A stretch of DNA of 30,191 nucleotides, from the UHGV virus genome UHGV-0176705. One strand, 5' to 3'. Position 1 is the first letter of the stretch, and the number at the start of each line of letters is the position of its first letter. The DNA is from a virus. Under the pieces are notes generated by a model. It made no database searches, was not told where the DNA came from, and saw nothing but the letters and a program-made list of their open reading frames with translations. Below, piece by piece: positions 12,732 to 13,629 of the stretch. The translations under genes were made by a program, and so were the position numbers.

Positions 12732-12760
12732 ATAATAGGTTTACCTATTCATGTTGTCAA
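12732..12760 (-). promoter_or_regulatory. Sigma70-type promoter for the HTH gene, with an operator-like inverted repeat in the spacer
   Basis: Minus strand reads TTGACA (12760-12755), 17-nt spacer, TATTAT (12737-12732). The inverted repeat AATAGGT-tt-ACCTATT (12734-12749) overlaps the -10 and spacer. Confidence 0.45.
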
Positions 12761-12778
12761 TCGGTTTGTCGATTTTTC

Positions 12779-12804
12779 AAAAAAAAACCCACTCGTGGAG
12801 TGGG
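12779..12804 (-). terminator. Rho-independent terminator downstream of cI
   Basis: Stem CCCACTC / GAGTGGG with 3-nt loop, followed on the minus strand by a run of 9 T, 24 nt after the cI stop. Confidence 0.65.
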
Positions 12805-12827
12805 CGGGGATGTTAAATAATTATCGC

Positions 12828-13520
12828 TTATGCGAAACGGTGTAGCGTCATAGGCCAACTTACGATTACTTTTCCGTCAATGTGAAGTTGCTCGAAGTCA
12901 TCTTGTTCGATAGCCCAATCTTTGTAAGCTGGATTGTCTGAGATCACTGTTAGGGTGTCTTTGATTTTTTGAAGCCTTTTGATGTGCGATGTTCCAGAGT
13001 ATGTAAAAGCGTATATACCATCGCCATTAAATGAGCGAACTGATACGTCAACAAACACCAAGTCCTCAGGGTTTATTGTGCCTTTCATGCTGTCGCCGCG
13101 GGCGTTTATTGCTTTGATTGCTGATGCTGGTCTGCCGCCAAAAACTCTTGATGCGTATCCTGGTTCTATCGCTATAGATCTGACAATGTCTGGAAAATCA
13201 GAGTTATAACTACCAGGTCCGCAACTGTATCTGATGTCTAAAACATCCACGACATACGAATCAGTAATCCTGTCTTCTGAAATGTTACGTATTTGGTGTG
13301 AGTCTGCAGAGGTCTCGATTTCCATTGGACCGACACCAGATGCGAGCCATTCCGGGTTAACGCCCAAAACTTTTGCTATTTCAACTGTTTTCCTGGAACC
13401 GTTGGCTTTGTTAAGTAATTGATTGACGCTTGACTGGGCCATACCTACTTCTTTGGCCAGCCTGCCTTGCGTAAATTTGGCGTTGCGCATAGCTAAATCA
13501 AGTCGTTCTGAAAATGTCAT
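12828..13520 (-). CDS. cI: CI-like phage repressor (HTH domain plus LexA/S24-type autoproteolytic domain)
   Basis: N-terminal HTH (QGRLAKEVGMAQSSVNQL) and C-terminal S24 peptidase signature (ARGDSM Ser, HIKRL Lys). Divergent from the cro-like gene. RBS GGAGAGGAAG upstream of the ATG. Confidence 0.9.
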   Translation of the reverse strand: MTFSERLDLAMRNAKFTQGRLAKEVGMAQSSVNQLLNKANGSRKTVEIAKVLGVNPEWLASGVGPMEIETSADSHQIRNISEDRITDSYVVDVLDIRYSCGPGSYNSDFPDIVRSIAIEPGYASRVFGGRPASAIKAINARGDSMKGTINPEDLVFVDVSVRSFNGDGIYAFTYSGTSHIKRLQKIKDTLTVISDNPAYKDWAIEQDDFEQLHIDGKVIVSWPMTLHRFA

Positions 13521-13588
13521 TGTGATCTTCCTCTCCTCTCTATGTTGGGCAGTTTATCGGCTTTCCGATGAAACTTCTAGGTTTAACG

Positions 13589-13629
13589 TTGAATATCGAT
13601 TTACCTATTGATAATATGTCGTCAATAGG
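13589..13629 (+). promoter_or_regulatory. PR-like rightward promoter with overlapping operator palindrome
   Basis: TTGAAT (13589-13594), 17-nt spacer, TAATAT (13612-13617). 8-bp inverted repeat CCTATTGA (13604-13611) / TCAATAGG (13622-13629). A second palindrome ATCGG-cttt-CCGAT lies at 13556-13569. Confidence 0.5.

Follow-up and report, generated by a model that had tools for sequence, protein, structure and literature searches.

Introduction

In bacteriophage lambda, the leftward early promoter PL is repressed by both CI and Cro, and three operators are found on either side of cI. Other lambdoid prophages of E. coli depart from this 3+3 arrangement; as summarised in PMC8065619, there are three OR and two OL sites in 933W and four OR sites in H-19B. 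The PL-like promoter of CP-933P (PL933P) was found by way of its OR-like operators and is repressed about 100-fold by PaaR2 and YdaS; the precise sites of these two regulators could not be resolved in that study (PMC8630535). Relatives such as SfIV have been reported to be without N, CII and CIII (PMC3851460).

We analyzed a 30,191-bp stretch of DNA, referred to throughout as the window, which belongs to a phiP27-like E. coli prophage and is 99.8% identical to a prophage of strain ETEC1732; this ETEC1732 prophage encodes a P27-family terminase. Our main reading, to which we assign a probability of roughly 0.85, is that a 10-mer found at the two outward promoters flanking cI belongs to a 16-bp putative CI operator, with a consensus of about AATMGG-N4-CCKATT, that is repeated on either side of cI.

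The window resembles lambda in having cI and a cro-type gene that are transcribed divergently, a LexA-like self-cleaving CI, and clusters of partly symmetric putative operators of a single consensus that lie on both sides of cI at the outward early promoters. It differs from lambda in that the predicted operators measure 16 bp instead of 17 bp, are of different sequence, and are arranged as two left and three to four right sites with other spacings. It has no rexAB genes in the interval from cI to OL, cI being directly followed by a terminator and next by PL; the first gene of the PL operon encodes a helix-turn-helix (HTH) protein instead of N, and Cro is a member of the YdaS family. With two proposed OL sites and up to four OR sites, the window is like 933W and H-19B in departing from 3+3, but the repressors and operators of those phages are unrelated to those described here, and their sites were mapped experimentally whereas ours are predicted from sequence. 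CP-933P shares with the window a YdaS-family Cro analogue and a PL-like promoter with operators like those of OR. Unlike in the window, the CI analogue of CP-933P (PaaR2) is not of the S24 type, the operators are 18-bp repeats of other sequence, and paaR2, the repressor gene, shares its operon with the toxin-antitoxin genes paaA2-parE2 that lie downstream of it. A ParE-family toxin-like gene is also found in the early-left operon of the E. coli Ch1 prophage (L006, 1130-1318), which has the same cI/cro/operator type as the window on another backbone; this gene recalls the paaA2-parE2 pair of the CP-933P immunity region (PMC8630535).

Gene organization around cI

The cI gene (12828..13520, minus strand) encodes a LexA-like repressor of 230 aa that combines an HTH at its N terminus with an S24 peptidase domain at its C terminus. 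Its product matched Peptidase_S24 at 1.3e-17, with weaker, sub-threshold matches to HTH domains, is CI-like by its PHROG assignment (PHROG 4 / 6201), and bears the RefSeq name 'LexA family transcriptional regulator'. The cro-like gene (13640..13882, plus strand) encodes an 80-aa HTH protein of the YdaS/Cro family (PF15943, 7.4e-15; PHROG 35) and heads a right operon that continues with rha and the replication genes. On the other side of cI, an intrinsic terminator (12787..12805, minus strand) composed of a hairpin and then a T-run divides the cI transcript from the HTH operon, and its hairpin is also present in relatives.

The early-left operon begins with the HTH gene (12272..12691, minus strand), which encodes a protein of 139 aa that has an XRE-type HTH at its C terminus and a putative assignment as a 'CII-like regulator' (PHROG 4836). 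The second gene of the pair (11910..12275, minus strand; 121 aa) has a full-length match to PHROG 5451, and its start overlaps the stop of the HTH gene (ATGA), an arrangement indicating translational coupling. More minus-strand genes follow the pair as far as int. We considered the pair as a defence system and rejected this reading, PADLOC giving generic HTH matches only and nothing for the partner gene.

Two further features of the neighborhood may be recorded. Within the rightward early operon, cro and rha are separated by an antisense gene of the bssS family (13967-14290, minus strand), with a hairpin of 12-bp stem and a T-run nearby (13938..13910); this gene may be a moron expressed in lysogens. 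To the left of int (positions 1-7433 of the ETEC1732 locus L001, corresponding to about 1-7200 of the window), the RefSeq annotation places the prophage next to ISEc12, an IS21-family element, and a P4-like satellite remnant that includes genes for a polarity-suppression protein and for a second integrase.

Operator-like sites at the promoters flanking cI

The initial annotation of this region, made from the sequence alone, had pointed to a 10-mer shared by the spacers of two outward promoters on either side of cI. This observation held: TTTACCTATT occurs in exactly two exact copies in the whole window, at 12740-12749 and 13600-13609. Both copies are within 17-nt promoter spacers, the left one in that of the leftward promoter, where it is part of the inverted repeat AATAGGT-tt-ACCTATT (12734-12749), and the right one in that of a PR-like promoter. 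Taken alone, the sharing of the 10-mer is weak evidence and only mildly unusual: for the two intergenic regions to have an exact word of 10 or more bases in common, P is 0.038 against dinucleotide shuffles and 0.032 against random pieces of the window. The palindromic context is much stronger evidence.

To describe this context, every 16-mer of the window was scored against AATMGG-N4-CCKATT at the 12 half-site positions, with a cut-off for listing of 10/12. The fourth base of the motif is given as degenerate (M) because the common substitutions exchange AATAGG with AATCGG. Seven sites in 30 kb scored at least 10/12, and five of these seven fall within the 255 bp flanking cI (12734-49, 12759-74, 13555-70, 13594-609 and 13624-39). 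Part of the degenerate motif came from the very sites counted with it, and its total over the whole window is not above chance (7 compared to 3.9 expected, with 13 of 100 shuffles reaching 7); the significance lies solely in where the sites are placed. Because the motif had been refined on the same sites, the scan was repeated with the left palindrome alone. AATAGG-N4-CCTATT, with up to three mismatches allowed, was found at two sites in the 119-bp cI-cro spacer compared to 0.025 expected (P about 3e-4). A scan of the whole prophage for half-sites, as had been proposed in the initial annotation, likewise revealed clustering near cI: 5 of the 20 AATAGG/AATCGG-type half-sites of the window are located in the 255 bp flanking the gene, with a P of about 6e-7 that is partly circular because the AATCGG variant was picked after the sites were seen.

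The left cluster is associated with a strong PL-like promoter (12732..12760, minus strand) that sits directly after the cI terminator and reads into the HTH gene. This promoter contains TTGACA (12760..12755) and TATTAT (12737..12732) separated by 17 nt, and matches the consensus at 11/12 positions. The putative operator OLa (12734..12749; AATAGGTTTACCTATT) is a perfect 7+2+7 inverted repeat that scores 12/12, spans the spacer and 4 bp of the PL -10, and includes the left copy of the 10-mer. OLb (12759..12774; AATCGGTTTGTCGATT) scores 11/12 and overlaps the PL -35 by 2 bp, the rest of the site lying upstream of the -35.

The right cluster is associated with the PR-like promoter (13589..13617, plus strand), which contains TTGAAT (13589-94) and TAATAT (13612-17) separated by 17 nt; with 8/12 matches to the consensus it fell under the threshold of the promoter scan and so was not listed by it. 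ORc (13594..13609; TATCGATTTACCTATT; 10/12) is located in the PR spacer and includes the right copy of the 10-mer. ORd (13624..13639; AATAGGAGATGCGATT; 11/12) lies just downstream of the PR -10, where it shares bases with the ribosome-binding site of cro and adjoins the ATG of that gene. ORb (13576..13591; TCTAGGTTTAACGTTG), which overlaps the PR -35, is a weak candidate at 7/12 by our own count, below the cut-off of the scan. ORa (13555..13570; TATCGGCTTTCCGATG; 10/12) is proposed to overlap a PRM-like promoter for cI, as OR3 does in lambda. The consensus promoter scan found no promoter for cI (PRM), and the candidate that we propose, lambda-PRM-like TAGAAG (13579..13574) with TAAACT (13556..13551), was picked out by eye. 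The centre-to-centre spacings of the operators are 18, 21, 25 and 30 bp. Because these differ from the 23–24 bp spacing of the lambda operators, cooperativity of the lambda kind should not be assumed.

At a distance from cI, an operator-like 16-mer (AATCGGTATGGCTATT; 11/12) is present at 21419-21434, about 70 bp upstream of an OmpC/NmpC-like prophage porin gene (20253-21350, minus strand). We rejected this 16-mer as a CI site. It is probably a chance near-match, because the region upstream of the K-12 DLP12 porin gene carries AATCAATGTGATTATT at the equivalent place.

Conservation of the sites within the immunity type

Conservation was assessed in 24 sequences with the same cI type: the window, E. 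coli Ch1 and 22 loci from IMG/VR. A single half-site column out of 24 is variable at OL, compared to 30 of 93 columns in the remaining intergenic region and all five positions of the linker between OLa and the -35 (12750-12754). The sole variable half-site column among 19 unique relatives is a T/G at 12746 in OLa, and OLb is invariant but for one central base. The -35 hexamer of PL is also invariant, and one column of its -10 (12732) varies. At OR, 9 of 48 half-site columns are variable compared to 32 of 47 in the remaining columns. ORa is conserved in the relatives, and ORb is strongly conserved despite its poor match to the motif. ORc is the least conserved site, most relatives reading TATCGCTTTTCCTGTT with CCTGTT as the right half. 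ORd is invariant, a conservation that is confounded by the translation signals of cro, its ribosome-binding site and ATG. The -10 of PR is TAATAT in the window and TATTAT in most relatives.

The conservation data also bear on a palindrome, CCTATTGA...TCAATAGG, to which the initial annotation had assigned the right copy of the 10-mer. Its 8-bp arms are present in the window at 13604-11 and 13622-29, but most relatives carry CCTGTTGT...TCAATAGG instead, and the palindrome is not the true unit: CCTATTGA-N10-TCAATAGG is the right half of one operator together with the left half of the next. Both this palindrome and the exact 10-mer are confined to the lineage of the window, TTTACCTATT being found at both places only in the window and one other of the 24 sequences (L008).

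The failure of most relatives to keep the exact 10-mer at both sites, and the finding that 3–4% of controls of this size and composition also have some word of 10 or more bases in common, would fit a coincidental resemblance of two AT-rich promoter regions with no common binding protein. Such a coincidence would not account for the palindromic context, the clustering of half-sites or the phylogenetic footprint, nor for the covariation across immunity types and the recurrence of the sites in phage Mulock described below. On these grounds we rejected pure chance, which we consider highly improbable.

Covariation of the palindromes with repressor type

When viral contigs were scanned with the HTH protein, 80 related prophage loci were recovered; the same scan of genome contigs returned just an unrelated Clostridia HTH protein. 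A repressor gene is located 68-147 bp upstream of the HTH gene on the same strand in 80 of 80 loci. Six types of repressor are found ahead of this same HTH gene, four of them of the S24 type and two of them short HTH proteins. Each type has its own palindromes, which are common to its repressor-HTH and repressor-cro intergenic regions, examples being GATAC-N4-GTATC (phiP27), TTAGCA-N3-TGCTAA, AATAG-N6-CTATT and CAATTTnAAATTG. In a best-window Hamming test performed on the strict intergenic regions, the cognate pairing was the best of the 720 permutations (1/720). This test was used instead of a longest-shared-word matrix calculated on intergenic regions padded with coding sequence, which proved too noisy. 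The CI and Cro types are linked 1:1, and both change with the immunity type. By contrast, the HTH protein hardly changes among the six types over its C-terminal 66 aa, which contain its DNA-binding domain.

Within the immunity type of the window, the presumed recognition helices of CI (MAQSSVNQL) and Cro (KAQSTVCDW) are alike. Those of a second type, whose AATAG-N6-CTATT operators are similar to those of the window, likewise resemble each other (MAQPTIWRI in CI and VKQPSVSRW in Cro).

The immunity region of phiP27 (L10-L11-L12) has the same backbone as the window, the same HTH gene downstream of cI and the same two-promoter operator layout, but differs in its repressor type and in its operators, which are GATAC-N4-GTATC. 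These sites flank cI in a 3+3 arrangement that accounts for 6 of the 10 matches in 10 kb, and each of the two outward promoters has one such site in its spacer.

Klebsiella phage Mulock, a distant phage, provides an independent check. Its CI is 52% identical overall to that of the window, with a homologous HTH domain in which helix 2-3 differs by one residue. The 16-bp motif of the window is found in Mulock at 6 places, compared to 0.26 expected, and at both flanks of cI. After the Mulock cI gene, an operator fused to TTGAC is separated by five bases from a second one, fused to TATTAT, which is the same PL architecture as in the window. The Mulock site equivalent to ORb is a perfect palindrome, and AATAGCTGAGGTGATT abuts the cro ATG in the manner of ORd. 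The genes that follow PL in Mulock are unrelated to those of the window and include no HTH gene of this kind. Because Mulock keeps the layout with unrelated genes downstream, the operator-bearing promoter is part of the cI module and does not belong to the HTH gene.

According to the initial annotation, one repressor, whether CI, Cro or the HTH protein, would control both promoters. The comparative evidence suggests that CI, and probably Cro, control the two promoters flanking cI: these type-specific regulators change along with the palindromes and so are candidate binders. The HTH protein is removed from this list because its domain is near-constant while the promoter palindromes differ with each type. 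An alternative in which the HTH protein binds would take the palindrome at 12734-12749 as its autoregulatory operator, the likeness to the PR spacer being incidental or the HTH protein acting at PR too. The gene whose promoter carries the palindrome does encode an HTH protein of the XRE family, and the coupling of this gene (ATGA) to a small second gene is a layout typical of autoregulated pairs. In an autoregulated, antitoxin-like operon the palindrome should track the HTH domain, a prediction that fails across the six types: the domain is almost identical in all of them, but the promoter palindromes are wholly different and match the cognate cI-cro operators. Mulock, moreover, has the same operators after cI without such an HTH gene downstream. 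We rejected the antitoxin-like model, and regard autoregulation by the HTH protein as very unlikely.

Control of both promoters by CI, and probably by Cro, could also be less complete than proposed, in that the operators would be real but the left cluster would be used by one regulator only (CI or Cro) and the coupling would be one-sided. CI and Cro sites are inseparable by sequence alone, both proteins vary with the immunity type, and the precise sites of the two regulators were also left unresolved in the CP-933P study. Against this, both regulators repress PL in lambda and in CP-933P, and the recognition helices of CI (AQSSVNQL) and Cro (AQSTVCDW) in the window are similar. One-sided use of the left cluster is therefore unlikely in our view, and use of both clusters by CI, and probably by Cro, is the preferred reading.

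Proposed switch and its relation to lambdoid phages

These comparisons point to the promoter of the HTH gene as the equivalent of PL/OL, and to the whole as a lambda-type layout of OL/PL and OR/PR. The PL-like promoter of CP-933P, repressed by both regulators of that prophage, is a close precedent in the literature (PMC8630535). In the initial annotation, expression of the HTH gene pair had been tied to the switch between lysis and lysogeny. Covariation and the Mulock comparison support such a tie, but not as a link special to this gene pair, the pair being under the putative equivalent of PL. In a lysogen, CI dimers would occupy the OL and OR sites and keep both early operons off, with the cI terminator stopping cI transcription from entering the left operon. 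RecA-stimulated self-cleavage of CI would then allow both promoters to fire. Later, Cro, a YdaS-family protein with a recognition helix like that of CI, would probably bind the same sites. The HTH gene pair, at the head of the early-left operon, is accordingly predicted to be silent in lysogens and to be turned on once CI is cleaved. In this scheme we infer binding itself, the protein that acts at each site, where PRM lies, and any cooperativity or looping between OL and OR.

The locus has the characteristics of a lambdoid switch. There is a divergent cI (HTH + S24)/cro pair, with putative operators of the same consensus in the cI-cro spacer overlapping PR; a second operator cluster is found beyond cI (12734-49 and 12759-74) on the leftward early promoter; and the operator sequence is specific to the repressor type, changing at both promoters, as seen in the six types, phiP27 and Mulock. 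It is not a lambda switch proper, as the first PL gene encodes an XRE-type HTH protein and not an N-type antiterminator. Because the layout is that of textbook lambda, the finding is an ordinary one and leaves the understanding of phage switches unaltered. The immunity type itself appears to be undescribed, though its design is known: the closest CI from an isolated phage is 51.5% identical among the matches listed, and a literature search found no paper on the operators of phiP27-type phages. The analysis provides a probable operator set (two left and three to four right sites), together with PL and PR, for one immunity type of phiP27-like E. coli prophages. This should be of use for annotation, for predicting superinfection immunity groups, and for planning induction and reporter work.

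Boundaries of the immunity module

The N-terminal region of the HTH protein behaves differently from its DNA-binding domain. Its first ~70-90 aa differ with each of the six repressor types, strictly 1:1 in the 80 loci, although the regions from different types can still be aligned as a helical pattern. The alignments place the predicted left boundary of the immunity module inside the HTH gene, near 12475, and the N-terminal domain co-varies with cI/cro because the boundary falls within this gene. Simple linkage explains the covariation, the genes being only about 100-150 bp apart. It is doubtful that the N-terminal domain represents more than a recombination boundary, such as an immunity-specific module that contacts the cognate CI/Cro or senses a type-specific cue; if it did, the early-left operon would feed back on the switch in an immunity-specific manner.

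At the other end of the module, the Cro proteins of different immunity types have a common C-terminal tail, ...PHPSLAHT... (13800-13882 in the window). Because of this common tail, the right boundary of the exchangeable module seems also to lie inside a gene, in this case cro.

Lastly, some observations were made on the partner of the HTH gene. RefSeq annotates only a 68-aa product for the 121-aa gene. The 121-aa protein carries a weak paralogue of the domain found at the N terminus of the HTH protein, the similarity lying in its C-terminal ~50 aa (35% identity over 34 aa, with an E of 0.001), and PHROG 4587 matches both the HTH protein and its 121-aa partner.
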